Positions 1,997 to 42,626 of a DNA stretch of 64,000 bases are shown here, in pieces. Both the position numbers and the translations under genes were made by a program. Within the stretch, counting starts at the first letter, position 1, and every line of letters begins with the position of its first letter. Source of the stretch: a virus. The notes under the pieces are model-generated. The model was given only the letters and a program-made list of their open reading frames with translations. It searched no databases and was not told the DNA's origin. The stretch lies in IMG/VR virus record IMGVR_UViG_3300013118_000772; one strand, given 5' to 3'.

Positions 1997-2142
1997 AGTT
2001 TATTTACCTCTATTAGCTTTTTAGATCTATTTATAATATCTTTTTTAATAGCTTCTGCTAGTTCTTTATTTCTTCTAATTTTAATATCTTGCATAGCTTT
2101 TAAGCTAAAATAAACCCCTGTTGGACAAGCACATCTTATCAT

Positions 2143-5844: not shown

Positions 5845-7005
5845 CTAATAATCTAATAATCCTGCTGTATTGACTTTACCATTATCTTTTGAAAAATGAG
5901 ATTGAAATTTAACACATGCTTTATCAAATCCCTTATCTAAACTATAATCTATAAATTCAATAGCTAATTGTACTTCTTTATCAAAAAATTTACGTATGAA
6001 GTTTCTGTAAACTTCTTTATCATCTTTAAGACTATTACAAAGTTTAGTATATTGAATCAATTGATAAAGATTATGCAATGATATTATACCACCAGGTGCA
6101 CTACCTTGTGAGGATAACATATTTATACTATCAATTTGACTACATACAGGACACATGCAAGGTATATTTTTTATATTTGCTTTATTTGCCTGACCAAAGA
6201 ATAATTCCATTTTACCAAAATATAAAGGAAGAAAATATTTTCTTTGCATTGATCCCTGAGCCCAAGCACTGCTATCTGCAGTAATATTATCTACATATCT
6301 TGCTAAGTAAGCTAAAACAGGAATTGTTCTACTTCCACTGACAGCTAAAAAATGAAAGTTATTACTATGACCTTTATTGTACATATACATACCTTGGTAG
6401 GCTAATAACATTGGCTTTGCCTCTGGTTTACATCCAAACGACCAACCTGTTTTTGTCATATTAGGATATTTTGAAGCCATATTATACCAGTCGTCCATTT
6501 TTCTTTTATTAAATCCATAACCTTGAAAAATATTATATAGTTTTAAAGGTCTTTCAGGATTAGATTCTAAATATTTAGTATATAAATCTTCTGCTATTTT
6601 AAAATTTTCATTGCTAATATTCATAGACTTTTTCCATGCTTTTTCATCCGCATCAAAAGGAGGATAATCTAAAGGAAAACCAATATCACAATTTTCAACT
6701 TGCCAATCAAAAACTTCTTTTGGGTCTATTTCTATATCCTGACCTTTCCATTCTTTTAGGCTCATATTTTGAAATCCGCCACTATCCCCCATAAAAATAA
6801 TATCATCTTTTATTTTTAATAACTTTCGTATATTTTCTTTTTTCATACCATAATGAGCGGAAATTAAAATATAAGGATATTTAAATAAAGATTCTTTCTT
6901 CCACCATGTTAGGTCTTTTTCACCATCTTTAAAATGACCAGAAATTCGTTTATTTGTACTACATGCGCCAGGAACTTCTGCTGGAACGAAATTAAAGTTA
7001 CCCAT
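5845..7005 (-). CDS. dpdA: tRNA-guanine transglycosylase family enzyme, DpdA-like candidate DNA 7-deazaguanine transglycosylase
   Basis: TGT catalytic motif MGDSGGFQNMSL and zinc site CMCPVCSQ...H; 386 aa with no PUA domain; embedded in a preQ0 synthesis operon with no queF/queA or tRNA context. Confidence 0.7.
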   Translation of the reverse strand: MGNFNFVPAEVPGACSTNKRISGHFKDGEKDLTWWKKESLFKYPYILISAHYGMKKENIRKLLKIKDDIIFMGDSGGFQNMSLKEWKGQDIEIDPKEVFDWQVENCDIGFPLDYPPFDADEKAWKKSMNISNENFKIAEDLYTKYLESNPERPLKLYNIFQGYGFNKRKMDDWYNMASKYPNMTKTGWSFGCKPEAKPMLLAYQGMYMYNKGHSNNFHFLAVSGSRTIPVLAYLARYVDNITADSSAWAQGSMQRKYFLPLYFGKMELFFGQANKANIKNIPCMCPVCSQIDSINMLSSQGSAPGGIISLHNLYQLIQYTKLCNSLKDDKEVYRNFIRKFFDKEVQLAIEFIDYSLDKGFDKACVKFQSHFSKDNGKVNTAGLLDY

Positions 7006-7006
7006 T

Positions 7007-8353
7007 CTATTTCAACTCCTTTCTTATTGCATAAAGTTCATTTTCAAAAAATTCAAATATATCATCAGGAAGTATTATTACATGGTCGTCGTCTATTTGT
7101 ATGTCAAATATCTCTTGATGCCATACAGGGTCAATCCTTCCTAATGTTTGGTACTTATTTGAATATACATAAGCAAGTGTTTCTGCTTCCTTTTTTCCAT
7201 CTTCTGAATTAAAAATAGCATCTAAGTCATCTGTATTAAGTATTTCCCTATGACTACTTAATCCAATTCTTTCTGGGTCTTCTTTTAATCCTTCTAGCAT
7301 AAAAGCTATTCTTTGGCATTTGTCACATTCATCACAAGGAAGCCACATTCCGTTTTTACTTTTCTTTGGAGTAAAACAACTCATTTGATATTGATATAGA
7401 TTAAATATATCATTTCGTATGAATATCTTTTGAATTGCTGATTCTGATAAATTATACACTAATGAAAATACTTGCATATTAGTACCGATTTCTTTAAGAT
7501 AATGACTTATCTTCCTTTCAAAATGGGTTGATTGATCAAAATTATGACCAAGTATTTCATGACCTTTAAATTCAAATGGAACAGTACAATCAAATTCATT
7601 TCCAAAAACTAGATTTCTAATTCCATTAATATTGCAATAAGCCAATTCAATAAAAGCTAGAATAGGTAAATATAAATTATTCTTACCCCATTTAGGTGCA
7701 ATGAAATCAAAAATTTCAAATATATTGGTTTGTATTTTATCTGACCAGGGAATTGCTTTATACATCATTTCACTTGGATCAAATCGATTATCATCAATAA
7801 ATAGAGGATAAGTTCTATAATTCAACTTTTGTAAAGTAGTAAAAGTCATTGTACTTTCTTTACCTCCACTCATGCTAATAGCATATTTATCTTCTTTATT
7901 TAGCTTATATTTAATGGGATCTAATAAAGGAAATTTTTCATATCCTTCCAAGTTAATATCTTTAAATTCTTTGAATTTATTTGTGAATGTAGTTCTCATT
8001 TGGAAATCTAGATCCAAAAGAAATGAATGATCTAATGAATTTAATTTAAATAGATGTCCTTTACTTAATGATTCCCAATTAGTTAAACATTCATTTTTAG
8101 TAAATAAACCTATATTTAATAATTGAACGTGAACTGACATAGCTAATAATTTTAGACTAATCTTACTATTTTCTAAATTACAATATTTTGGAAAGTTAAT
8201 ATAAATTGGTATAATAATAGAATCATTGTTGTACTGTAACATATATTTACAAGTAAATATATTTTTCATAATTTTTAAATCAAATAATGTTACTCTATTA
8301 AATTTAAAATTAGGATTTTCTTCTATATGTTTAATTAATTCTTTTTTATTCAT
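7007..8353 (-). CDS. QueC-family PP-loop ATPase paralog with about 150-aa N-terminal domain of unknown function
   Basis: Variant PP-loop ISMSGGKEST and QueC-like C-terminal zinc cluster C-x13-CDECDKC; start ATG overlaps queC stop (ATGA). Confidence 0.6.
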   Translation of the reverse strand: MNKKELIKHIEENPNFKFNRVTLFDLKIMKNIFTCKYMLQYNNDSIIIPIYINFPKYCNLENSKISLKLLAMSVHVQLLNIGLFTKNECLTNWESLSKGHLFKLNSLDHSFLLDLDFQMRTTFTNKFKEFKDINLEGYEKFPLLDPIKYKLNKEDKYAISMSGGKESTMTFTTLQKLNYRTYPLFIDDNRFDPSEMMYKAIPWSDKIQTNIFEIFDFIAPKWGKNNLYLPILAFIELAYCNINGIRNLVFGNEFDCTVPFEFKGHEILGHNFDQSTHFERKISHYLKEIGTNMQVFSLVYNLSESAIQKIFIRNDIFNLYQYQMSCFTPKKSKNGMWLPCDECDKCQRIAFMLEGLKEDPERIGLSSHREILNTDDLDAIFNSEDGKKEAETLAYVYSNKYQTLGRIDPVWHQEIFDIQIDDDHVIILPDDIFEFFENELYAIRKELK

Positions 8354-9078
8354 TTAGTTAACCTCTTTGCCCTTCTAGCTAATGCAGCTAAAAAATCTTC
8401 TCTTTCATCTTTTCTTGACATTAATTTTTTATTTGCTTCCTCAGTTAGATTTTCAAATGGATCTTTTTCAAATATTTCATGATAGCTTATATTATTTAAC
8501 TCCAAAGCTACTGCTTTTCTTATACATGCTCTACAAACACCACATTCATGTATTTTGCCACTATAACAACTTCTAGCAAAATGTTTTAGATGTGAAACAA
8601 TGCCACCATTAGCTATATATTGCTTAACTATTTGTGCTTTAGTCAAGTGTTTAAATGGCATCTTAATACTAAAAGGGTAATTTTTTTCAAATACTTTATG
8701 TTTATCTATGGCAAAATAATTTAACATTCCTTCTACTTGTGCTTTGAAAATAAAATCCTTATCTTTTGTGCTATCTCCAGCAGTAAAACCCATATAAATT
8801 TCATTTCCATAATTAGCTGCAATTAAAGTCATAATAGAATTTCTATGAGGTATTATTTTATTTTCCATTTCCCATTCTACTAAAGGTAGTTTAAGTATTC
8901 TAACTTTATCTTTTATTTCTTCTGGCATAGCACTTAAATTTTCAAGTTCAATTTTATTGTCTTCTGTTTCTAAATCAAAAAAGATAATTTCATCATATAT
9001 ATCATTAAACAATAAACACCAGCTGTCTAGTCCACCAGAAAATAATAATATCTTTTTAACTTTTAAACTGTCCTGCAT
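8350..9078 (-). CDS. queC: 7-cyano-7-deazaguanine synthase
   Basis: PP-loop LFSGGLDS, zinc motif CYSGKIHECGVCRAC (C-x7-C-x2-C-x2-C), 242 aa. Confidence 0.85.
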   Translation of the reverse strand: MQDSLKVKKILLFSGGLDSWCLLFNDIYDEIIFFDLETEDNKIELENLSAMPEEIKDKVRILKLPLVEWEMENKIIPHRNSIMTLIAANYGNEIYMGFTAGDSTKDKDFIFKAQVEGMLNYFAIDKHKVFEKNYPFSIKMPFKHLTKAQIVKQYIANGGIVSHLKHFARSCYSGKIHECGVCRACIRKAVALELNNISYHEIFEKDPFENLTEEANKKLMSRKDEREDFLAALARRAKRLTK

Positions 9079-9431
9079 TTTATCTTTCCTCCTGAAAGTT
9101 CTCTTATTCCAAAATTTATTTCTTTATCATTATCTATATATTCGTCTATATGATATATTTCACAAAATGCTTTTTTGAATTGAACTACATAAGTATTATG
9201 CCACATCTTTAAAGGATTGTAAATTATCTTTATTTTGTCTGGATTCATTCCAAATCTTTTCAACGTTTTAAGAGTAATTTTTTTATCTTTATAATTTCTA
9301 GCTGTTATAATTATTTTAATATCTTCTATATTTACCTTTGGATTTAACCTATTAAATCTCTTTTTTAACCAATGATTTTTAAATTTAGATATAATTATAG
9401 TCCCATCCAAATCATAAGCTATTTTTTTCAT
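9063..9431 (-). CDS. Small HAD-superfamily phosphatase (possible nucleotidase)
   Basis: HAD motif I AYDLDGTI (DxDGT) at N-terminus; 122 aa. Confidence 0.5.
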   Translation of the reverse strand: MKKIAYDLDGTIIISKFKNHWLKKRFNRLNPKVNIEDIKIIITARNYKDKKITLKTLKRFGMNPDKIKIIYNPLKMWHNTYVVQFKKAFCEIYHIDEYIDNDKEINFGIRELSGGKIKCRTV

Positions 9432-9805
9432 CTTAATCCTTTTTCTAATAAAAAATTTATTATATCATCCAAACCTTCGAAAATTATACTTGAATAATTT
9501 ATTAACCATGGACTTCTCCATTCATCATGAACAAAAACATAAACTTTCTTTCTCAAGCTTTTGGCATAAAACATTTCCATTGCTGTACCCCAACCAGGTT
9601 TTGTTCCGTCAACAATTAAAATATTGGATTGTCTAATATGTTTTCTATCTTTATTAACAATAGCTCTATGTTTACCTTCTTGATATTTATAATCCATTGG
9701 ATTTATTATTTTAAATTTTTTTCTAAGTTTAATTTTAACTCTTCTTCTCCAACTTTCCCTGAAGGGATCACCATCAAGAGTTCCACTGAGATATATTGTT
9801 TTCAT
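9428..9805 (-). CDS. Nucleoside 2-deoxyribosyltransferase / Rcl(DNPH1)-like protein
   Basis: N-terminal IYLSGTL and central LIVDGTKPGWGTAMEMFYA resemble NDT/Rcl family signatures (YLAGP...D-G-T-x-x-E-x-G-x-A); 125 aa. Confidence 0.4.
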   Translation of the reverse strand: MKTIYLSGTLDGDPFRESWRRRVKIKLRKKFKIINPMDYKYQEGKHRAIVNKDRKHIRQSNILIVDGTKPGWGTAMEMFYAKSLRKKVYVFVHDEWRSPWLINYSSIIFEGLDDIINFLLEKGLR

Positions 9806-9874
9806 TAATCCTCACCTACATCTACTGACATAATATTTCCATAATCATCTTCTACAAAGATAATATTTGGGTAG

Positions 9875-10474
9875 TTATCTTCCATTATGAACCCCATTAG
9901 CAAATCTTAAAAATTCCGCTCTTGTTTCTAAATTGTCTTTAAACGCTCCTCTTAGTTCAATTGTGGTCATATATCCCTCTTTTTTAACTCCTCTTATTGA
10001 TTTGCATAAATGTTTTGCTTTTAAAACCAATGCCATGCCATACGGTTGATTATTTTTTCCATTACTCAACTCTTGCCATAAGTAATCTAAAATATCTTTT
10101 GCTAATCGTTCTTGTATTTGTAATCTAGCTGAAAAATAATCTACTACTCTTGCAACTTTACTCAACCCCAATAATTTTCCATTAGAATTTGGTAAATAAG
10201 CAAAATAATAATTCCCTAAAAACCCAATAATATGATGCTCACAAAAGCTATTAAAATTTCCTTCGTCCATAATCATTTGATCATATGTTACACCATCTTT
10301 TCCATTTCTGAATGTAGTTACTTTTGGTAGTTGTTTTGGATCATATCCTCTAAATATTTCTTTCCACATATTAACTACTCTTTTAGGTGTATCTTTTAAA
10401 CCTTCACGATTTGGGTCTTCGCCTATAAACTCTAACATGCTTCTAACAATCCACCTCATATTATCTTCATCCAT
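9875..10474 (-). CDS. folE: GTP cyclohydrolase I
   Basis: FCEHHIIGFLG and LLGLSKVARVVDYFSARLQIQERL match FolE core; 199 aa. Confidence 0.8.
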   Translation of the reverse strand: MDEDNMRWIVRSMLEFIGEDPNREGLKDTPKRVVNMWKEIFRGYDPKQLPKVTTFRNGKDGVTYDQMIMDEGNFNSFCEHHIIGFLGNYYFAYLPNSNGKLLGLSKVARVVDYFSARLQIQERLAKDILDYLWQELSNGKNNQPYGMALVLKAKHLCKSIRGVKKEGYMTTIELRGAFKDNLETRAEFLRFANGVHNGR

Positions 10475-11092
10475 TTATTTTCCCCTCCGTTTAACTCCCC
10501 ATACATCTACATGTAATCTTGGGCTATATCTTATTTTATGTTTGATACAAAAATCCCAAACTTTTCTTGATATTTTTTTATTTTTTTCTTTATCAGATGT
10601 AGTCAATGGCATTAATAATGATGCTTTTTTTGCCATTTCTTTATTAACTTTATCCAGATCAGATGCTATTTTAATATCATAAAAATATCCAAGCCAAAAA
10701 TTATTATAACTCATTAATTGCATCACTCGATTTAATGTATTTGCATCTTTTGGAGATACGCTAATATAATCAAAATAAGATAATTTATCCCTAGTTAATA
10801 AATCTCCATTAGTTTCTAAATGATGACTAAAACTAGGGAGCTGGCTAATTATTTGTGTCATTTCTATAAACTGTAAAAGTCCCTCACCTCCAGTCCAAAC
10901 TACTGTATCTGTCCCTGATTTTTTTATAGTATTGATAATTTTTTTAATGTTAATTTCATCTCCTTCTTTATGATATTTTGTATCACACCAAGAACATGAT
11001 CTGTTACAGCCGCTTAACCGAATAAAAATAGCTGGAATTCCTACAAATTTTCCTTCGCCTTGTAATGAGACAAACATTTCGTTGATTTTCAT
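10475..11092 (-). CDS. queE: 7-carboxy-7-deazaguanine synthase (radical SAM)
   Basis: N-terminal MFVSLQGEG and radical SAM cluster CNRSCSWCDT; 205 aa. Confidence 0.85.
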   Translation of the reverse strand: MKINEMFVSLQGEGKFVGIPAIFIRLSGCNRSCSWCDTKYHKEGDEINIKKIINTIKKSGTDTVVWTGGEGLLQFIEMTQIISQLPSFSHHLETNGDLLTRDKLSYFDYISVSPKDANTLNRVMQLMSYNNFWLGYFYDIKIASDLDKVNKEMAKKASLLMPLTTSDKEKNKKISRKVWDFCIKHKIRYSPRLHVDVWGVKRRGK

Positions 11093-11328
11093 TTCTTTTT
11101 ACCTTTATCCGGGTTAGTCCTATCCCTGGTTATAGTAGTTATGTGCTTTATAATTATCTTCCTTTTGTCAGTCATAATAACAATATTTAAATGATTAAAG
11201 TTCATGCCTCTTATTTTACCTTTAATAGATATTACTTCTTTCCCTTCAAGATATTTAACTTCACATTCCTTACCAATGAATCTTTTTATCTCATCTAAAT
11301 ACGGGTTAACTTCTTTTCCCTTCATCAT
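11089..11328 (-). CDS. Hypothetical small basic protein, possibly Sm-like fold
   Basis: 79 aa; GKIRGMNFNHLNIVIMTD loosely resembles an Sm1 motif; lies between queE and queD. Confidence 0.25.
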   Translation of the reverse strand: MMKGKEVNPYLDEIKRFIGKECEVKYLEGKEVISIKGKIRGMNFNHLNIVIMTDKRKIIIKHITTITRDRTNPDKGKKK

Positions 11329-11770
11329 TTATATTCACCTCTGCATAACAAGTTGGAGTTTCATATAGTCTTATTCTTGAAAGTTTTAAATGCCTCGGTA
11401 GATTTATATCTAAAACATCAAATATATAATTAACCATATTTTCAGCAGTAACATTTTCTTTTAATCTTAATACTTTCTGATCAATTTTTTCTTCCAAATA
11501 TTTAGCAATATCTTCGTCTACGATAGATAAACTATTTATAATTAATGCATGATCAAATTTATCTACTACATATTCTTTAACTACTTCCTTAAAATCTCCA
11601 AAATCTATTACCATTCCATCATCTGATTCAAAAAATTTAAATTTATCTTGTATCAATCCCATTACTTCTACTTCTAATAAATAACTATGTCCATGAATTG
11701 ACCTACATTTTCCTTTATGGTTAACTAATCTATGTGCACATTCCCATCTAAATATTTTACATATTTTCAT
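11306..11770 (-). CDS. queD: 6-carboxy-5,6,7,8-tetrahydropterin synthase
   Basis: CAHRLVNHKGKCRSIHGHSY (Cx-HGH zinc motif); ORF-track start at 11869 is probably an over-extension; likely start MKICKIFRWECAHR. Confidence 0.8.
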   Translation of the reverse strand: MKICKIFRWECAHRLVNHKGKCRSIHGHSYLLEVEVMGLIQDKFKFFESDDGMVIDFGDFKEVVKEYVVDKFDHALIINSLSIVDEDIAKYLEEKIDQKVLRLKENVTAENMVNYIFDVLDINLPRHLKLSRIRLYETPTCYAEVNINDEGKRS

Positions 11771-16260: not shown

Positions 16261-16441
16261 TTTTAATTTCCTCCACTTTTTCTGGCTTTATTAATGTCTC
16301 TTTTTTATCTATTTTACCTTTAAATTCAAGAACAATATCCTCTTGTGCTTTTATTCCATATTTATTTCGAATATCAGATAGAATAGTAACTTGATTAATG
16401 TCATTTACTTTTGCTCTGAATTCTGTTTCTTTTAATTTCAT
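16253..16441 (-). CDS. Hypothetical small protein (62 aa), first gene of minus-strand block
   Basis: ORF with stop-start overlap to downstream gene; SD-like GGAGGA upstream on minus strand. Confidence 0.3.
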   Translation of the reverse strand: MKLKETEFRAKVNDINQVTILSDIRNKYGIKAQEDIVLEFKGKIDKKETLIKPEKVEEIKNG

Positions 16442-16544
16442 TTACATTCCTCCTAATTTAGAACTTTTAGAATTACTTTTTGCCATAAAATAAATTAAAT
16501 TAATGTTATATTTAAATTTATTGTATTCAGGTATATACCTCAAC

Positions 16545-16568
16545 TAAATCATTAAATCACTAAATCAT
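16545..16568. repeat. Tandem 8-bp repeat TAAATCAT/TAAATCAC/TAAATCAT in divergent promoter region
   Basis: Direct reading of the 16441-16718 intergenic spacer. Confidence 0.6.
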
Positions 16569-16718
16569 TAAAAAAACAATAAATTTAAATAGTTGATTAA
16601 TTTTAAATAAAATTAGGATAAAAAATGAGAAATAAGAAATCAAATCTAGAAAATCACAATAATAATATTAATAATAATCTATTTTATAATAGGTCAAAAA
16701 TGACAAGGAGGACAGTAA

Positions 16719-21422: not shown

Positions 21423-21893
21423 ATGGATGAGAAAAAAACATTAATTGACAGAATAACAGAATATGGATTTCTTTTTATTGTAGGAGCAATATTAATAATA
21501 ATAATTATTTCTTCATATAATTCATATTTCAACTATTGTAAAAACAATCCATTATCTGATAAATGTGAATGTGCAGAATATAAAAATATATTTATTACAA
21601 ATAACACTAGAAGAACTGAACATTGTTTTGGATTTCCTTCTGAGTTATATACTGAAGAAGAATTTTCAAAATATGCTCAGGATATAGAAGTAAATGCATA
21701 TAATAATGCTAATATATCAGATCATGGAATATTTTATAGATATATATTTAATTATGAGGATACAGCATATTTTTGCGTGGCTTTTACAGGAGATGTAATT
21801 AATATAACCTTTATGAATCAAACAGCTTCTCATGTTAACCATACATCTATGCTTGATAAAGTAAAAACTTGCGTTAAAATAAGGAGGAAATAA
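21423..21893 (+). CDS. Hypothetical membrane protein (156 aa)
   Basis: N-terminal TM helix; several NxT/S sequons. Confidence 0.35.
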   Translation: MDEKKTLIDRITEYGFLFIVGAILIIIIISSYNSYFNYCKNNPLSDKCECAEYKNIFITNNTRRTEHCFGFPSELYTEEEFSKYAQDIEVNAYNNANISDHGIFYRYIFNYEDTAYFCVAFTGDVINITFMNQTASHVNHTSMLDKVKTCVKIRRK

Positions 21894-21895
21894 AA

Positions 21896-22381
21896 ATGTT
21901 ATTACTAGATGACGATAAAATGTTAATATATTTACTTTGCGCTTTAATAGTTATTAATGTTATATTAGGAGCTATATTATCTATCAGAATAGCTAATTTA
22001 GGCGGTCCTGATGAAATACAATTAAATGTTAACCATAGAATAGATCCTCCTGACGAATTTCAAGGAATAAAAATTAACGATTTTATGATAGTTTCACAGA
22101 GATATGCAGAAACACATACATATGATATCAATGAATTTAATTGTGTTAATTACTCAGCAGGAATAAAAATGATTGCAGATGAACTTGATTTACCGGTAAG
22201 AATTATACAAGGATGTCCTTATAATGTAACGAAAAACAACACATGTCATCAATGGGTTCAATTTTTATTAGATGTTGAACCTCAAAATGCATACTCACCT
22301 AATTATGACGATAAATATCCTATCCAAAAAGTAATAATTGATTTTGATGAAAAAATTAAAGATTTTGATAAAAATGACTGA
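21896..22381 (+). CDS. Hypothetical membrane protein (161 aa)
   Basis: N-terminal TM helix. Confidence 0.35.
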   Translation: MLLLDDDKMLIYLLCALIVINVILGAILSIRIANLGGPDEIQLNVNHRIDPPDEFQGIKINDFMIVSQRYAETHTYDINEFNCVNYSAGIKMIADELDLPVRIIQGCPYNVTKNNTCHQWVQFLLDVEPQNAYSPNYDDKYPIQKVIIDFDEKIKDFDKND

Positions 22382-22580
22382 TATAATAGAAGAAATTTTA
22401 ATGAGTAAAACTCATAATTTAAATGAAATTGACGAAATTTTTGATAAATATAAAACGGGTCTTTGTGATTTTGGAGTGATTATTATCGATCAAAATATGC
22501 GTTATGTTTTAAGATTAAAAGGAGATAGTTTAACCGAATATGAATTCTTCTTTTCTTATGATTTATCATCATTAATTTAA
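22338..22580 (+). CDS. Hypothetical protein (80 aa)
   Basis: ORF overlapping the 3' end of upstream gene. Confidence 0.25.
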   Translation: MILMKKLKILIKMTDIIEEILMSKTHNLNEIDEIFDKYKTGLCDFGVIIIDQNMRYVLRLKGDSLTEYEFFFSYDLSSLI

Positions 22581-22610
22581 TATTTTAATAAACTAATATG
22601 ATAATAATGA

Positions 22611-22726
22611 TTTTTTAAAATATTTTTAAACTTTTTAAAAACATTTTAAAAACGTCATAAAATAGCTGTTTTTAGACGAATTATTTTTTAAAATGTTTTT
22701 AAAAAGTTTAAAAATATTTTAAAAAA
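22611..22726. repeat. 42-bp perfect inverted repeat (22611-22652 / 22685-22726) around a 32-nt loop
   Basis: Arms TTTTTTAAAATATTTTTAAACTTTTTAAAAACATTTTAAAAA and its exact reverse complement; loop carries AAAATAGCTGTTTTT, which recurs at 22866-22880. Confidence 0.8.
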
Positions 22727-22894
22727 GCCAAAAAACCCCTGTTTCTACTATAGCAAAAATTTATGATTTTTATATATGAAAATTTTTTAAAATGTATTAA
22801 AAACATTTTAAAATATATATTAAATTTTTTAAAAATTCATTAAAAACTGTCTACTATTTTTAAAAAAAATAGCTGTTTTTGCCATTTTTAGCGG

Positions 22895-22920
22895 TTGAGG
22901 TCATGACCTCGGCTTTTTTT
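22895..22920 (+). terminator. Palindrome TTGAGGTCATGACCTC followed by T7 run (hairpin plus U-tract; possible terminator or protein-binding palindrome)
   Basis: GAGGTCATGACCTC is a perfect 14-bp palindrome at 22897-22910; TTTTTTT at 22914-22920. Confidence 0.4.
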
Positions 22921-23240
22921 ATTTTTACCAAAATTTTTAAAATTTTTTAAAATTTAAAACCGAATTTTAAAAAATTTTTCATATATAAGTTATATATGAA
23001 AATCATTGATTTTTAAAATTTAAAATTTAAAAATAATTCCCAAAATCCCTTATAAAGACCTTGATTTCACGTGGAACACTGCTGGGGGTCAACCTTTTTT
23101 AATTTTTAATTTTAAAAATTATTTTTTATTAATTTATTATCATATATGACATTATAAAATTTTAAAAAAATAAATAAATAATTATAATAGAATATATATT
23201 TTAAAAAAATATAGAAATCATTAAAAACAATGAAATTTAA

Positions 23241-23255
23241 TTGAGGTCATGACCT
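23241..23255. repeat. Second copy of 15-bp palindromic motif TTGAGGTCATGACCT
   Basis: Identical to 22895-22909; located 346 bp downstream, just upstream of a box-A-like TTTAAATA. Confidence 0.6.
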
Positions 23256-23269
23256 AACACCAAAAAATA

Positions 23270-23277
23270 TTTAAATA
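23270..23277 (+). promoter_or_regulatory. Archaeal box A-like TATA element TTTAAATA
   Basis: Matches TTTAWATA consensus; 38 bp upstream of the small ORF starting at 23315. Confidence 0.35.
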
Positions 23278-23314
23278 AACTAATATTTTAATAAATATAA
23301 TAAATAAATTAAAA

Positions 23315-23494
23315 ATGAGAATAATAGACCTTTATGATTTGGAAAGAAAAACTGTCCAATCAGAGAAATTTAAAAAAGGATTAATGGCAGATATAGAAAG
23401 TGTAGCTAAAGTTCAATTTGAAGATAATAAATTTGATAAATTTATAGTTAAATTTAGATTAGAAAAAATTGAAAAACCTGAGGGATATTTTTAA
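23315..23494 (+). CDS. Hypothetical small protein (59 aa)
   Basis: Manual translation MRIIDLYDLERKTVQSEKFKKGLMADIESVAKVQFEDNKFDKFIVKFRLEKIEKPEGYF; first ORF after the repeat region. Confidence 0.25.
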   Translation: MRIIDLYDLERKTVQSEKFKKGLMADIESVAKVQFEDNKFDKFIVKFRLEKIEKPEGYF

Positions 23495-23495
23495 A

Positions 23496-23831
23496 ATGAT
23501 AAAAGAAATCAAATGGAAATGGTTATTATTAAAAACAAGGTTAGGATTATCTAAAATAGATTATATGGATAAATATATGAAAAAGAACTACTGTAGATTT
23601 GGTATACATAATATTAGAAATTCAAATATCTCTTTTGGAGGATTGGGTCAACGGATGAAACATATTAAGTTTATTAGATGTAAACATTGTAAGTATTTAT
23701 TTTTTGCTAAAAAGTCAGACAAAGAAAGATATGAAAAATATCAAGAAAAGACTAAAGGAACATACTCTGCTTTATTTACTAGTCCTTCGAGTGGAAAACT
23801 GGAACACCGTAAGCCGTCGGTAGACAAGTAA
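23496..23831 (+). CDS. Basic zinc-finger protein
   Basis: CRFG...CKHCKY; ORF-track TTG start at 23469 is probably an over-extension; ATG at 23496 (MIKEIKW) follows the stop of the preceding small ORF. Confidence 0.35.
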   Translation: MIKEIKWKWLLLKTRLGLSKIDYMDKYMKKNYCRFGIHNIRNSNISFGGLGQRMKHIKFIRCKHCKYLFFAKKSDKERYEKYQEKTKGTYSALFTSPSSGKLEHRKPSVDK

Positions 23832-23891
23832 CTTAGAGATATTCCGGTCAGATTAGTGGTATTTTAAATAGTAAATACAGAGGTAAAAGAA

Positions 23892-24113
23892 ATGGTACAA
23901 ATATCAGTTAAAAATAATACATATGTGGATTTAAATATTCTAAGAACGGATGGAGTGGTTGCAAGGGAAGGTCAGACCGTATCTTGGGATGCTGTAATAT
24001 CATCGCTTATTCAAGTAGCTCAAAAAAATAAGGAAGATTATTTAGAAGTAATAAAAACCAAATTGGATAAAGGTGAAGAAAAGCTAAAGTCGGAGGAAAA
24101 GAAAAATGAATGA
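23892..24113 (+). CDS. Hypothetical protein (73 aa)
   Basis: SD GAGGT upstream; ORF. Confidence 0.3.
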   Translation: MVQISVKNNTYVDLNILRTDGVVAREGQTVSWDAVISSLIQVAQKNKEDYLEVIKTKLDKGEEKLKSEEKKNE

Positions 24114-24303
24114 AGCTATTAAATTAGAGGTTATTGTAAAAGAAAAAGACGGACATAAACTAGAATTTGAAACTGAATTAGATAATCAAGTTATTGTTTT
24201 AAAATTAGATAATAATGAAATATGTCGTTTAGATTGGTCAAGCCTTCGAGAGGGGGTAGATAGAATGAAAGAAATCTGGCCTAAGAAAGAAACTAAAAAA
24301 TAA
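24106..24303 (+). CDS. Hypothetical protein (65 aa)
   Basis: ATGA start-stop overlap with upstream ORF. Confidence 0.3.
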   Translation: MNEAIKLEVIVKEKDGHKLEFETELDNQVIVLKLDNNEICRLDWSSLREGVDRMKEIWPKKETKK

Positions 24304-24429
24304 ATTCATGCTAGCCATTACCGGGAAGCTTGGCGAGGTGACAGTTGGTGGCTATACTACTGGATTACTGAGCTTCCCAATTTTAATAAGAGGTAAAAGA
24401 ATACACAGAAATATTGGAGCCAATAAAAA

Positions 24430-24780
24430 ATGACTAAGAAAAAGGTTAAACCTATTTTGCTAAAAACTAAAAAAAGTTCTAATAAAAAAGGACCAATCTC
24501 TAAGTTTTTTGATATGACAGTTTATGAATTTTTGGTAGAGTTAATATTATTTATTATTGTATTGACTATTTCATCATTATTATATTATTTTACAATATTT
24601 ATGCTTGGATTTATTACTTTGTTCCTTCTTTGGTTTTTTGGAAATTCAAATATGGGGATAAATTTATTTCTTTTCGATGATGTTAATATATTTAATATAA
24701 CTAACATTATTAGAGTTGCTATGTTTTTAATTATATTTGTAAAAGTTTTACTCAAAATAAAAGGTGATAAAAATAATTAA
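24430..24780 (+). CDS. Hypothetical membrane protein (116 aa, 2-3 TM)
   Basis: Hydrophobic helices; basic N-terminus. Confidence 0.35.
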   Translation: MTKKKVKPILLKTKKSSNKKGPISKFFDMTVYEFLVELILFIIVLTISSLLYYFTIFMLGFITLFLLWFFGNSNMGINLFLFDDVNIFNITNIIRVAMFLIIFVKVLLKIKGDKNN

Positions 24781-28857: not shown

Positions 28858-28907
28858 TAGTTTGTTTCACATAAAATTGATTATAAAAGGGTCAATTAAT
28901 AATTAAA

Positions 28908-28915
28908 TTTAAATA
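28908..28915 (+). promoter_or_regulatory. Box A-like TTTAAATA element
   Basis: 62 bp upstream of 28977 start. Confidence 0.3.
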
Positions 28916-36368: not shown

Positions 36369-37009
36369 TAAATGTGAAATATAAATTTTTTTTATTTTTA
36401 TTTTTTATTTTACTTGCTTCAACTTCTGTTTATTCAATTTTAAATAATAAAATATATTACATCATACCAGGCGTAGACGAATACTTAATGGCCATAATTG
36501 ACTATCGCCCTGATATTAATGTAGGAAATAATAGATGGATCAATTTATCAATTTATATGCAAGGAATAGATGAACCATCTGAATTTAGAAATATAACTAA
36601 TGCTACTATTTTATCAAATATGACAGCTCCAGATGGCTCGATTTATTTAATTAACTTTTCAAATGTTACTACAGGATTTTACAAAACAAATTTCACTTTT
36701 CTAAACGAAGGGATTTATTTTATGGATTTATTGATTTCTGAAAGTGAAAAAGGATATACAATTAATAGAGTTTATTTTTACGCTGGAAATTTAACCGAAG
36801 CTTATCAAGGTGGAATTGGTGGGCTTCCAGGGATATCGCTAAGCTTGTATCAAAGTGAAAAAGAAAGGGCAGATGTCGCAGAAAGGAAGATTTCTAGTCT
36901 AAGAGACTTCATTATACTGTTAATTATTCTATTGACGCTAATAGGCTTCGTAGTGATAATAGCTGTTCAAATCTTTAAAAAGCGCAAAACCCTGATAATT
37001 AATAATTAA
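36365..37009 (+). CDS. Secreted glycoprotein with C-terminal TM anchor (214 aa)
   Basis: GTG start overlapping upstream stop; signal peptide; C-terminal IILLIILLTLIGFVVIIAVQIF then KKRK. Confidence 0.4.
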   Translation: MINVKYKFFLFLFFILLASTSVYSILNNKIYYIIPGVDEYLMAIIDYRPDINVGNNRWINLSIYMQGIDEPSEFRNITNATILSNMTAPDGSIYLINFSNVTTGFYKTNFTFLNEGIYFMDLLISESEKGYTINRVYFYAGNLTEAYQGGIGGLPGISLSLYQSEKERADVAERKISSLRDFIILLIILLTLIGFVVIIAVQIFKKRKTLIINN

Positions 37010-37010
37010 A

Positions 37011-37018
37011 TTTAAATA
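37011..37018 (+). promoter_or_regulatory. Box A-like TTTAAATA element
   Basis: 44 bp upstream of 37062 start. Confidence 0.3.
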
Positions 37019-40618: not shown

Positions 40619-41248
40619 ATGGTAACAAAAACATTAAGAAATATTATACTTTCAGCTTTTGGAATATTTTTTGTAATTATACTTCTTAGAGTTACTAATG
40701 GACTTGAACATATATGGAAATTTATAGATAGATTTGGTTCATATATATTATTGCTAGCTTTATTAGTATCGATAGGAATAGCTGCTTATTTCTATTTTTA
40801 TAAGAAAACAAAGCAAGAAAATCAAGATCAAGTCAAAAAATCATGGGAATTCATATGTAATTGGTGGGATGAAACAATGGGAATGTCAGAAGGACTTAAA
40901 TTGGAAGATTCTTTCATGAAAGAAGGATATTATGATTCAAGTCAAGGACAAACGGAAAGATTTTTTGGATGGAATGTAACTAAAATGAGTACATCAGAAA
41001 GAATAATTTTCATAGTAGGAACCAGTCCTTTTAGAGTAGTTAGATTTATTAACAGACCCAACATTGGAGAACAGGAAGATCCTTTCGAATCTTTTTATAG
41101 TGTCCCACCTAAACCTGTGCCAGGATTTAATGATTTTGCTATGCAGAAATATGCTGAAATGGAAAGAAGAAAAAAGGAAACTCCAGAAGAAAATGATGAT
41201 GCTGTTGATCCTTTATCTGGGGATTGGGTAGATGGAGGGGACTTATAA
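40619..41248 (+). CDS. Membrane protein (209 aa, 2 TM)
   Basis: Two N-terminal hydrophobic helices; acidic C-terminus. Confidence 0.35.
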   Translation: MVTKTLRNIILSAFGIFFVIILLRVTNGLEHIWKFIDRFGSYILLLALLVSIGIAAYFYFYKKTKQENQDQVKKSWEFICNWWDETMGMSEGLKLEDSFMKEGYYDSSQGQTERFFGWNVTKMSTSERIIFIVGTSPFRVVRFINRPNIGEQEDPFESFYSVPPKPVPGFNDFAMQKYAEMERRKKETPEENDDAVDPLSGDWVDGGDL

Positions 41249-42626
41249 TATGGTTATTGAAAATTTATTTATCGGTAAAAAGGAATTTTTATCATACCAG
41301 AAAGTTTTTAATGCCAATGAATCTGTTATAACTGACATGGTAAGATTTCAAAAACCCGAAATTAAATATTCGATGAGTGCTATTCCTATTGGAAGGATTA
41401 GAAAGAGTTTAAAGCCACATGTAATTGATTTATCCCATTCAAAAAGAATATTAATATTAGGTATGACAGGGAGCGGAAAATCCGTTCTATGTGGAAGTAT
41501 CATGGATAGATTTAAAAAATCTGGGGGGTTATTAAGTATTTTTGATCTTAAAGGAGAATATATAGTTAAATCTGTTCCTTTAAAGGATAAATTTTCTGAT
41601 AAATATATAACCAATGCTAATGGAGAAAAGGTCAGAACATATTTGTTTAATGAGGAAACTCCTCAGGGTTTTGAGTTAAAAAGTTATTATCCTGTTTTTC
41701 TTAAAAATATAATGGCTGGATCAACATTAAAAGATAAAAATAGACCTTTATTTGAAAATGAATCTTTATGTCAATTTGGAATGGAAAGTTTAACCAAAAC
41801 AGATTTTTTTACTTTTTTTGAAACTATCACTAATAGAAATTCATCGTATTTTGAATATTTAGAAGAACTATGGTTGGGCATTGAAAGAGATAGTCTTTCT
41901 ACATGGGAAGACATAGTTAGTTTTATTGAAGATCATGATGTATTTAGTAAAAGTACTAGAAAAAATCTTATTAGAAATCTGACCATTTTAAAGGATAATG
42001 AAGTGCTTGGAAATGCTTATGATCCTCCAGACTTAATAACTGATTTAAAAGAAAATAGAATAGGAATTCTTAATTTAAAGGGTATAATCAATTTACCTGT
42101 TACAACTAATCCTGCTCTAGTATATGTAAATATATTACTACGTAAAATTTATAATTCTAAAGTAATAGGAGATGTTAGTACCAAAAAACATAATTTAATC
42201 TTTGTAGATGAAGTAAATAAATTTGTCCCTAGATTAGGAAGTACCCCTTCAAAGGATGAATTTTTAAAGTTATTGGATTTAGTAAGAAGTGAACATATAA
42301 GTATGATGTATTCTACTCAGGATTGGAGAAGAATCCCTGAAACTCTAATAAAACAAGCTGATTATGTTTTCTTACCATTTAACATTGATTTAGATGATTT
42401 AGCTGAAATAGTTAAATTAGTTTTACCATCAGAATATCATACTCCTCAAACTTTTAAAACTAAAATGTCTCACCTTCAATCTATGATGAAGATTTATAAA
42501 GATGGAAGAAGGGATTGGTTAATGATAGATAAGATAAATAAGAAAAGGGTTTTCTTTACGCCAGTTTTGCCCCTTTCTTATTTTCTAGAGGAAGGAGAAA
42601 AAGCAGAAAATGTACTTTCATCTTGA
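41232..42626 (+). CDS. HerA/FtsK-type P-loop ATPase, candidate genome-packaging ATPase
   Basis: Walker A LILGMTGSGKS, Walker B LIFVDEVNKF; 464 aa. Confidence 0.6.
   Translation: MEGTYNMVIENLFIGKKEFLSYQKVFNANESVITDMVRFQKPEIKYSMSAIPIGRIRKSLKPHVIDLSHSKRILILGMTGSGKSVLCGSIMDRFKKSGGLLSIFDLKGEYIVKSVPLKDKFSDKYITNANGEKVRTYLFNEETPQGFELKSYYPVFLKNIMAGSTLKDKNRPLFENESLCQFGMESLTKTDFFTFFETITNRNSSYFEYLEELWLGIERDSLSTWEDIVSFIEDHDVFSKSTRKNLIRNLTILKDNEVLGNAYDPPDLITDLKENRIGILNLKGIINLPVTTNPALVYVNILLRKIYNSKVIGDVSTKKHNLIFVDEVNKFVPRLGSTPSKDEFLKLLDLVRSEHISMMYSTQDWRRIPETLIKQADYVFLPFNIDLDDLAEIVKLVLPSEYHTPQTFKTKMSHLQSMMKIYKDGRRDWLMIDKINKKRVFFTPVLPLSYFLEEGEKAENVLSS

Follow-up and report, generated by a model that had tools for sequence, protein, structure and literature searches.

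A repeat-dense, AT-rich intergenic hub as a candidate control region between two operons of a circular, apparently archaeal-type virus-like element

The DNA analysed here (the window, 64,000 nucleotides) belongs to an element that we rebuilt as a circle of ~76.9 kb. The element has a G+C content of 28% and two gene clusters in opposite directions, and its genes include those for a PolB, an archaeal-type RFC, a helicase with an MCM fold, an ATP-dependent ligase and an integrase. The closest named homologues of the RFC are archaeal (239 bits to P. furiosus RFCS vs 67 bits to T4 gp44). Sigma-70-like sites are not enriched, with 139 found and 137 in shuffles. The element is best read as a new circular archaeal-type virus-like element. 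As further host clues, tRNA genes and Rfam matches were looked for in the region adjoining the integrase, and neither was found. One relative, L037, carries a bacterial-type Pol III alpha, which weakens the case for an archaeal host. With a bacterial host, the TATA/BRE reading of the promoters proposed below would fail. The element DNA has no match in the phage collection, and its MCM-fold protein has none in IMG/VR, the GTDB genomes or, by tblastn, the phage collection. A metagenome scan for close relatives returned short contigs only.

Positions 22581-23314 form the region that we call the hub. This 0.73-kb gap (734 bp, 15.5% GC) is gene-free, as the earlier note had described it, with no ORF of at least 40 aa. 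No other genuine (ORF-free) intergenic gap of the window is as long, and the hub begins 1.2 kb past the end of the MCM-fold gene. The least stable 60-, 120-, 300- and 700-bp duplex windows of the 76.9-kb genome all lie in the hub, the 60-bp and 120-bp ones in an almost pure A+T stretch at 23095-23240. At the left boundary, AATATTTTAATAAACTAATATGATAATAA (22579-22607, plus strand) matches the TATA-proximal segment of the hub promoter (23266-23294) at 26 of 29 positions. The two copies of this direct repeat (family D12, 90% identity) are 687 bp apart, one at each edge of the hub. A G+C-containing segment (22727-22752, plus strand) holds the 9-mer AACCCCTGT (22734-22742), which has three copies in the genome; by our own estimate from base composition, ~0.14 would be expected.

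Independent assemblies of two samples agree exactly in the hub sequence. This identity is weak evidence because the strains are ~99.98% identical overall. In ENA scaffold L001, 23209-23844 appears to be replaced by 100 bp. We rejected this as a natural variant; the stretch is a run of N, a scaffolding gap, and the full sequence over it is present in the second sample. The contigs L003, L004, L005 and L064 end inside the inverted repeat described below, and these ends are read as assembler breaks at the repeat rather than as physical genome ends.

The first two downstream ORFs (23315-23831, plus strand) encode a 59-aa protein, without a Shine-Dalgarno motif, and a Cys-rich 111-aa protein. Both ORFs, to which no function is assigned, are found in two independent assemblies and are presumably driven by the hub promoter. 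A search for regulators among the neighbouring small proteins gave zero Pfam matches. For a 73-aa protein the protein database gave no homologues, and the single-sequence model of this protein (pLDDT 55.7) is too poor to use. The earlier note had placed a "late module" downstream of the hub, where no capsid, portal or terminase families were recognised; a putative packaging ATPase is located at 41232, 18 kb from the hub.

A 42-bp inverted repeat (22611-22652 and 22685-22726) with 100% complementary arms and a 32-nt spacer is present as previously noted. In 200 dinucleotide shuffles of the hub, the longest perfect inverted repeat measured 12.5±1.6 bp, with a maximum of 18. Three of the four longest perfect inverted repeats of the window fall in the hub. 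As single-stranded DNA, 22605-22732 folds with -41.4 kcal/mol (z = -11.9). The hairpin continues into the spacer through CGTC/GACG pairing and a near-palindromic 15-mer, and the whole 116 bp (22611-22726) is therefore a quasi-palindrome. The spacer carries AAAATAGCTGTTTTT at 22659-22673, whose only other exact copy in the window is at 22866-22880 (plus strand); GCTGTTTTT, noted with this second copy, also occurs upstream of two promoters in L037. Each 42-bp arm contains four T4-6A3-5 units ~10.5 bp apart, and the 40-nt arm module recurs twice more in degenerate form (75-85% identity to the arms) at 22775-22845 (families D1-D3, I2 and I7). The arm pattern has no match in IMG/VR.

Two known kinds of element were considered for the quasi-palindrome and rejected. 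A MITE does not fit the flanks (ATAATGA and GCCAAAA), which show no target-site duplication, and there is no other copy in the genome, the relatives or IMG/VR. A telomere-resolution site was rejected on the lack of target duplication, the single copy and the 32-nt spacer, with which the repeat is not a true palindrome. Of all features of the hub, the perfect identity of its two 42-bp arms is explained least well. It may come from hairpin-templated homogenisation or from selection for a cruciform.

The hub is also rich in short T/A units. There are 17 TTTTAAAA units in 22613-23206, out of 39 in the window, bearing out their reported abundance; local dinucleotide shuffles give 2.6±1.5 (maximum 8). 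Their spacings cluster at 11, 20-21, 31, 42 and 53 bp, and the phasing over the whole 440 bp is marginal (~99th percentile of random placement). The local spacing at multiples of the helical repeat speaks for protein binding or curvature, rather than for simple stop signals. Runs of at least five T number 21 on the plus strand and 18 on the minus strand of the hub, ~5x the genome density. Sequence and repeat comparison also located the near-palindrome TTTTCATATATAAGTTATATATGAAAA described before, at 22976-23002, a shift of one base from its earlier coordinates. It shares the 14-mer TTATATATGAAAAT with 22770-22783.

The palindrome TTGAGGTCATGACCT has two exact copies in the window, at 22895-22909 and 23241-23255, in agreement with the earlier note. 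Copy 1, 313 nt past the last gene of the MCM/ligase operon, is part of the hairpin GGTTGAGGT-CATG-ACCTCGGCT, which is followed by T7-A-T5 (22893-22926, plus strand). The hairpin (22893-22914) has 9 pairs, 4 of them G-C, and a 4-nt loop, with T7 (22914-22920) directly after it. Within the 64 kb, the coding strand has no strong hairpin-plus-T-run other than this one (22893-22920), and shuffles of the 3-kb stretch scanned (21,500-24,500) gave 0.4 such sites. Judged by its sequence, the site has the features of an intrinsic terminator and may act as one for the MCM/ligase operon. Runs of 5-6 T residues terminate transcription by archaeal RNA polymerase (PMC2253867; PMC8716108). On the minus strand, the hairpin site precedes ATGGCAAAAA (22885), a mimic of the leader of the divergent-gap promoter described below. 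After copy 1 on the plus strand, ACCAAAA-TTTTTAAAA (22927-22942) is a possible second BRE/TATA-like element by comparison with 23259-23277.

Copy 2 of the palindrome forms the upstream half of a putative composite promoter (23241-23277, plus strand), in which TTGAGGTCATGACCT is joined by an A-rich, BRE-like AACACCAAAAAATA and the TATA box TTTAAATA (23270-23277), 14 nt downstream of the palindrome. The TTTAAATA box is directly preceded by ACCAAAAAATA, the arrangement of an archaeal BRE/TATA promoter, in which an 8-bp TATA box follows an A-rich BRE and lies ~25-30 nt ahead of the start. The composite layout is TTGAGGT-N4-ACCT, then 12–14 nt, then TTTAAATA. It is found at three operon starts: 23241-23277 (plus strand), 16543-16509 (minus strand), where it heads the minus-strand replication-gene operon, and L053 20164-20198, left of the window. 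All three copies are intergenic and correctly oriented upstream of the first ORF. TTGAGGT-N(18-24)-TTTAAATA has 2 matches in the window vs 0.01 expected. AGGT-N4-ACCT has 4 vs 0.72 expected, 3 of the 4 in the two main control gaps. In two sister promoters the TATA box starts 30-31 nt from an ATG, by our reading the spacing expected for leaderless archaeal mRNAs. A bacterial sigma-70 reading of the composite was rejected by inspection; the hexamers and their spacing misfit in the three copies.

The minus-strand copy belongs to a sister control region in a divergent gap (16509-16591), which contains the palindrome AGGTATATACCT (16529-16540) and four tandem 8-bp units (TAAATCAN). The two divergent TTTAAATA boxes of this gap together make up an inverted repeat of 16 nt. 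The first instance of another promoter class, an exact 22-mer, is at 28,894. The suggestion that the hub is an early/late switch fits these data poorly: the hub promoter shares its upstream element with the replication-operon promoter, and a distinct class is seen only from 28.9 kb. The hub is probably not such a switch.

Parts of the composite promoter recur in relatives. The promoter core (A)ACCAAAAA..TATTTAAATAA occurs in intergenic gaps of L037 (twice), L047 (twice) and L036. The 15-mer palindrome has 29 matches in IMG/VR, each a single copy. In L035, with 57% MCM identity, the syntenic gap is directly followed by a homologue of the 73-aa gene. The palindrome is conserved in this gap, which holds TTGAGGTCTGACCTCGG and a second AGGT-N3-ACCT, and its palindrome-to-TATA spacing differs from that in the hub. 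Alignment of the hub with the L035 gap gave nothing above shuffles except the palindrome, whose conservation has a chance probability of ~1e-9 by our own estimate from base composition. The matching gaps of L035 and L049 contain AT-rich inverted repeats (24-nt arms, 92%) around short G+C palindromes, and an 11-mer particular to L035, TTTTAACTAAT, recurs five or six times in the L035 gap, in both orientations. All relatives keep the divergent gap beside the MCM operon (16.3-16.7 kb). L036 and L047 have no comparable hub after the MCM gene.

We propose that the hub is a boundary and control region between two co-directional operons, and put the probability of this reading at about one half; its promoters, starts and terminators are predicted from sequence. 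A dimeric DNA-binding regulator, viral or host, would bind the palindromes and co-regulate the promoters that share them. Within the hub, the hairpin/T7 and the numerous oligo-T runs would end transcripts of the MCM/ligase operon. The T4-5A4-5 arrays could provide oligo-T stops on both strands and so act as a bidirectional insulator, and could also supply easily melted or curved DNA beside the promoters. The hub may have grown through duplication and shuffling of promoter modules, as proposed below by analogy with the PeSLs of T4-like phages. It does contain duplicated promoter pieces: the 29-mer of family D12 at both edges, and the palindrome with ATGGCAAAAA on the minus strand. A simple terminator-plus-promoter takes ~100 bp, not 734 bp, and the control model requires no perfect 42-bp inverted repeat.

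The earlier note had favoured a replication origin, with a transcriptional switch or a cluster of terminators as its second option. The repeats on which it built are real, and the evidence now favours the transcriptional alternative. As an origin, or one of two, the hub would use the quasi-palindrome and the T4A4 arrays as unwinding element and initiator iterons, with the MCM loaded here. It has the AT richness and low stability of an unwinding element, being the least stable duplex of the genome at scales of 60-700 bp. Its perfect inverted repeat has cruciform potential, its iterated units are spaced at helical-repeat multiples, and transcription alone leaves both unexplained. The gaps in L035 and L049 have the same design with different sequence, a pattern typical of origins. 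The genes for MCM, ligase and clamp loader adjoin the hub; the MCM-fold gene is equally close to the 16.5-kb divergent gap by way of its operon start.

The skew of the rebuilt circle argues against an origin here. The cumulative GC skew has its minimum at 16,577 and its maximum at 64,863, and the AT skew turns at 16,527 and 64,462, with a monotonic slope over 20.9-24.9 kb and no inflection at 22.6-23.3 kb. The GC minimum at 16,577 lies in the divergent gap beside the MCM operon, 6 kb upstream of the hub, although skew is confounded by gene orientation. That gap is conserved in all relatives and has its own inverted repeat and tandem 8-mers. L036 and L047 lack the hub. The palindromes of the hub are accounted for as promoter elements, and no match to the Orc1/Cdc6 family was found among the ORFs scanned. 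One mini-ORB-like box, TTCACGTGGAAC followed by 7 nt and GGGGG (23066-23089, plus strand), matches the Pyrococcus mini-ORB at 10/12 positions (motif TTCCAGTGGAAC from PMC1904270). We rejected an ORB reading of it: this is a single match, 8 equally good ones occur genome-wide, which is chance level, and there are no repeated ORB boxes. The T4A4 units are repeated, but they are not a known target of an initiator. An origin at the hub is an unlikely reading, and we keep it in play because the perfect inverted repeat and the locally phased arrays are not fully explained. A more specific form of it is rather doubtful. It would make the hub a new type of viral origin for an Orc1-independent, virus-encoded MCM, with the 116-bp A/T-only, cruciform-forming quasi-palindrome of helically spaced T4A4 iterons as the loading site. 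This site would be coupled to the palindrome-regulated promoter, so that transcription and initiation are jointly controlled.

The T4A4 arrays and the inverted repeat could instead be a platform for an architectural, partition-like or packaging protein, as centromere-like 10-11-bp iterons or a bent pac-type site. The 17 TTTTAAAA units, with their 11/21/31/42-bp spacings and symmetric clusters, resemble the layout of plasmid R1 parC, in which iterons lie on both sides of the promoter. The different 11-mer at the matching place in a related genome suggests co-evolution with a sequence-specific protein. Such a platform is nevertheless improbable: no ParA/ParM/ParB-like or small-terminase gene was recognised nearby, the element carries an integrase, the putative packaging ATPase is far off, and phasing over the whole region is only marginal.

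The same low standing is given to the view that most of the hub is a by-product, left as a recombination scar of promoter/terminator modules and low-complexity A/T in which the terminal promoter alone is functional and the inverted repeat is a recent inverted duplication. The flanking 26/29 direct repeats of promoter-proximal sequence, the degenerate extra arm copies, the shortened minus-strand copy of the divergent-gap leader and the failure of the relatives' matching gaps to align outside the palindrome are all consistent with a scar. A scar fits poorly with the recurrence of the architecture in relatives and with the conservation of the palindrome; the identity of the hub in the two assemblies also counts against it, although this says little for strains so similar. 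A small non-coding RNA, such as a hairpin RNA of 116 nt or a transcript with its 3' end at the T-run at 23095, is highly improbable: the region folds as RNA far better than shuffles (z = -7.3) and has G+C islands followed by T-runs at 22880-22920 and 23040-23100, but there is no Rfam match at the gathering score (the best by E-value, a miRNA model, has 22 bits vs a cutoff of 90), shuffles fold as well as the G+C island (z = +0.78), and the T5-6 runs throughout the hairpin arms should stop the archaeal polymerase.

Almost nothing is known about cis-regulatory DNA in uncultured archaeal viruses. In the control-region reading, the reusable composite of palindrome and BRE/TATA would define a co-regulated gene set in a new MCM/RFC/PolB element, and the second promoter class would mark the probable structural-gene block. 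For replication, the analysis yields two concrete origin candidates, at 16.5 kb and at 22.6-23.3 kb. If the inverted repeat and arrays were an MCM loading site, this would be the first sequence-defined origin for such a virus. Otherwise the hub would be an operon boundary of the ordinary kind, though an ornate one.

The features of the hub can be set beside several known systems. Like the archaeal oligo-dT terminators, including tandem ones (PMC2253867; PMC8716108), it has runs of at least 5 T in series directly after an operon. Unlike the terminators described there, it has ~20 runs per strand and a bacterial-looking hairpin, far beyond the needs of termination. Archaeal chromosomal origins consist of an AT-rich unwinding element flanked by inverted ORB boxes beside orc1/cdc6 (PMC4010727; PMC1904270). 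The hub resembles them in being AT-rich and easily melted, with inverted-repeat symmetry, adjacent replication genes and one mini-ORB-like box with a G-run. It differs in having A/T-only units as repeats, without repeated ORB boxes, an orc1/cdc6 gene or a skew turning point.

The element as a whole resembles the Magrovirus-like archaeal viruses (Aoguangviridae; PMC10768690). Both are circular assemblies of low G+C (31.5% there, 28% here) with their own PolB, RFC small subunit, MCM and ATP-dependent ligase and with two opposite gene clusters. Unlike those viruses of 90-100 kb, the element has 77 kb and an integrase, with no HK97 capsid, portal or terminase recognised. Its MCM-fold protein also has no match in the phage collection. 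The likeness concerns the kind of element, and membership in this group is at most tentative.

The closest parallel for the repeated composite is the PeSL (promoter-early plus stem-loop) cassettes of T4-like phages (PMC2839356; PMC4122927). A PeSL contains a sigma-70 early promoter, whereas the hub has a TATA/BRE-like one beside an archaeal-type replisome, and the likeness is an analogy only. Copies number only 3-4 here, and PeSLs have neither a 42-bp inverted repeat nor T4A4 arrays. PeSL copies mark indel or replacement boundaries between closely related genomes. The strains available here are identical in the hub, and the one apparent replacement among them is the scaffolding gap of L001. 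In both systems, however, a composite of short stem-loop and promoter is reused within one genome, here as three full copies and one with a T-run insert. In both, the composite sits at the boundaries of blocks of small ORFs and is a plausible substrate for module shuffling, and the hub holds duplicated pieces of such modules.

The hub (window 22581-23314), the ORF-free AT-rich gap between the MCM/ligase operon and the next co-directional operon, contains a composite promoter. On the plus strand, TTGAGGTCATGACCT at 23241 is followed by the 14-nt spacer AACACCAAAAAATA and by TTTAAATA at 23270. Another copy lies on the minus strand within the divergent gap (16543-16509; TTGAGGTATATACCT, 12 nt, TTTAAATA), the sister control region at ~16.3-16.7 kb, and a third to the left of the window (20164-20198 of L053, a handle covering parts of the element there; TTGAGGTACATATCT-AACACCAAAAGA-TTTAAATA). 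The joint palindrome/TATA pattern has two matches in the window, with 0.01 expected. AGGT-N4-ACCT has four, with 0.72 expected; three of the four are in the two control gaps, and two of the palindrome's four genomic copies are in the hub. All three composite copies face a first ORF, and in two of them an ATG lies 30-31 nt from the TATA start, the spacing expected of leaderless archaeal messages. The core ACCAAAAA(A/G)TAT(T/A)TAAATAA also occurs in intergenic gaps of L037, L047 and L036, metagenome relatives with homologues of the MCM-fold protein; one copy in L047 lies directly 3' of the MCM gene. The shared layout, the first-ORF orientation and the recurrence in relatives mark the palindrome as an upstream element of promoters, and most simply it is a predicted operator for a dimeric regulator. 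In the divergent gap, a 14-codon mini-ORF (16445-16486, minus strand; MAKSNSKSSKLGGM) begins at a distance of exactly 30 nt from the TATA box and stops just short of the first real gene's Shine-Dalgarno motif; a leaderless upstream ORF is a possibility.

The hub also contains partial copies of this promoter. At 22893-22914, 313 nt 3' of the MCM/ligase operon's last gene, the palindrome makes a 9-pair hairpin followed by T7-A-T5 on the coding strand. Downstream of it, ACCAAAA-TTTTTAAAA looks, by inspection, like the promoter core with T-rich sequence inserted. Read on the minus strand, the palindrome precedes ATGGCAAAAA, a copy of the divergent-gap promoter leader without its TATA box. A 29-mer with the TATA-proximal AAACTAAT box is found at both hub edges (26/29 identity). 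With such copies inside it and at its edges, the hub looks assembled from duplicated promoter modules. The most economical account, to which we assign a probability of about 0.5 on sequence grounds, is that the hub serves as operon boundary and control region. Transcripts of the MCM/ligase operon would be stopped by the hairpin/T7 and about 20 oligo-T runs per strand, the next operon would be driven by the palindrome-regulated TATA promoter, and duplicated promoter modules would be present as leftovers.

The window corresponds to the first 64 kb of a JGI contig of 68.7 kb, and two ENA scaffolds (75.0 and 76.9 kb) are in parts identical to it. Joined, the pieces give a circle of ~76,888 bp (28.3% G+C; end overlap 1.4 kb at 99% identity), with genes running leftward from ~16.3 kb and rightward from ~16.7 kb. 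The left arm encodes PolB, a Cas4-like nuclease, a 7-deazaguanine gene set and an RFC small subunit; genes for an XPB-like helicase and a tyrosine integrase lie farther to the left. The RFC sequence is archaeal in type, with 239 bits against P. furiosus RFCS, 67 bits against T4 gp44 and 290 bits against NCBIfam NF001679, and its nearest named homologues are archaeal (42-45% identity). Since, in addition, sigma-70-like sites are not enriched and the element has almost no hairpin terminators, we read the control signals as archaeal, although the relative L037 encodes a Pol III alpha of bacterial type and strong Shine-Dalgarno motifs fit either domain. The 7-deazaguanine set (window 5845-11092, minus strand, and gene calls on the handles L053/L056) is full, comprising TGT/DpdA-like, QueC, radical-SAM QueE-like, GTP cyclohydrolase I and PTPS genes; together with an accompanying nucleoside deoxyribosyltransferase, it suggests modified DNA. 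To the left of the window, within L053 18491-20222, the integrase gene is followed by an 800-bp gap with no tRNA or Rfam match, in which a G+C-rich hairpin-dense segment (about L053 19740-20100) may be an attachment site.

The earlier note had offered an early/late switch as one role for the hub. The hub promoter proves to be of the same class as that of the replication-gene operon, and another class, represented by the exact 22-mer AATTAATAATTAAATTTAAATA, stands at 28894-28915 and 36997-37018, 5' of a 751-aa lectin-domain gene and a 532-aa gene. This is possibly a late class, and any temporal switch more likely sits at these two promoters than at the hub. The label "late module" for the downstream genes is tentative, since no capsid (HK97 included), portal or terminase family was recognised with Pfam and PHROGs, the whole right arm included; that arm yielded only an FtsK/HerA-type ATPase (41232-42626). 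A Terminase_6 gene is present in the relative L049.

The repeats listed in the earlier note are all present, one coordinate being off by a single base. The perfect inverted repeat is 42 bp long versus 12.5±1.6 bp (maximum 18) in shuffles; with CGTC/GACG pairing and a near-palindromic 15-mer in the spacer it forms a 116-bp quasi-palindrome (DNA folding, -41.4 kcal/mol; z = -11.9). Each arm consists of four T4-6A3-5 units ~10.5 bp apart, and degenerate copies of a 40-nt arm lie at 22775-22845 and 22934-22973. TTTTAAAA occurs 17 times in the hub (39 in the whole window; local shuffles, 2.6±1.5), with spacings clustering at 11, 20-21, 31, 42 and 53 bp, periodicity across the whole region being only marginal. 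The hub is the longest genuine, ORF-free gap, nearly the richest in A+T, and holds the least stable duplex of the genome at every scale tried; its oligo-T runs number about 20 per strand. It also breaks assemblies: ENA scaffold L001 has a 100-N gap (11314-11413) where the window has 23209-23844, and several short contigs (L003, L004, L005, L064) stop at 22625-22738 or begin at 23038. Non-coding DNA has three copies of the 9-mer AACCCCTGT, with about 0.14 expected from our own base-composition estimate: 2113-2121 (+), 22734-22742 (+) and 64852-64860 (-), the last in the convergent gap at the GC-skew peak.

Fifteen homologues of the MCM-fold protein were found (49-60% identity), all of them in metagenomes. 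In every context recovered, the divergent gap beside the ligase/MCM operon is conserved; the DNA 3' of the MCM gene is variable. The relative L035 has a 484-bp gap that is syntenic with the hub, since its first gene thereafter is homologous to the 73-aa gene at window position 23892. This gap carries TTGAGGTCTGACCTCGG, a second AGGT-N3-ACCT, an inverted repeat of 24 nt (92%) around the first palindrome, and five or six copies, in both orientations, of the 11-mer TTTTAACTAAT. The 17-mer shared with the hub has a chance probability of about 1e-9 by our base-composition estimate. In L049/L050, a 580-770-bp gap directly 3' of the MCM gene has a G+C palindrome within a 24-nt inverted repeat. No such hub was found in L036 and L047. 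The design of the hub recurs in relatives; its sequence does not. Replisome parts are swapped among the relatives (L037 1-1608 is the Pol III alpha, fused to UDG; others have PolB), and the MCM-fold gene has an intein in L047/L048 (10001-11962) and a split match in L041. Sequences resembling tRNA genes (GGTTCGATTCC T-arm) at L035 18900-19070, for which ARAGORN made no call, may either contain introns or have degenerated.

Three features go beyond what the control-hub account needs: the arms, which match perfectly over 42 bp, the arrays with their local phasing, and the design of an inverted repeat around a palindrome, which recurs in relatives. They keep two other explanations alive. One, also raised in the earlier note, is that the hub is a replication origin, which these features fit but which we consider unlikely. 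Cumulative GC skew, computed for the rebuilt circle, is lowest at 16,577 and highest at 64,863, and AT skew changes direction at 16,527 and 64,462. The hub shows no inflection, and skew magnitude to its left (17-21 kb) is as high as to its right; both turning points are strand-switch gaps, so gene orientation confounds this test. The single mini-ORB-like box in the hub (motif from PMC1904270) is at chance frequency. By position, conservation and skew, the divergent gap (16261-16718) is the better candidate: it holds the GC-skew minimum, a 16-nt perfect inverted repeat composed of two divergent TTTAAATA boxes, the palindrome AGGTATATACCT and four tandem TAAATCAN units, and its repeat, palindrome and tandem units can be aligned with the divergent gap of L035. 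The other explanation, a protein-binding platform, would draw on the same arms, arrays and design and is improbable. The preferred reading, an operon boundary and control hub, would have an analogue in the PeSL cassettes known from T4-like phages (PMC2839356, PMC4122927).
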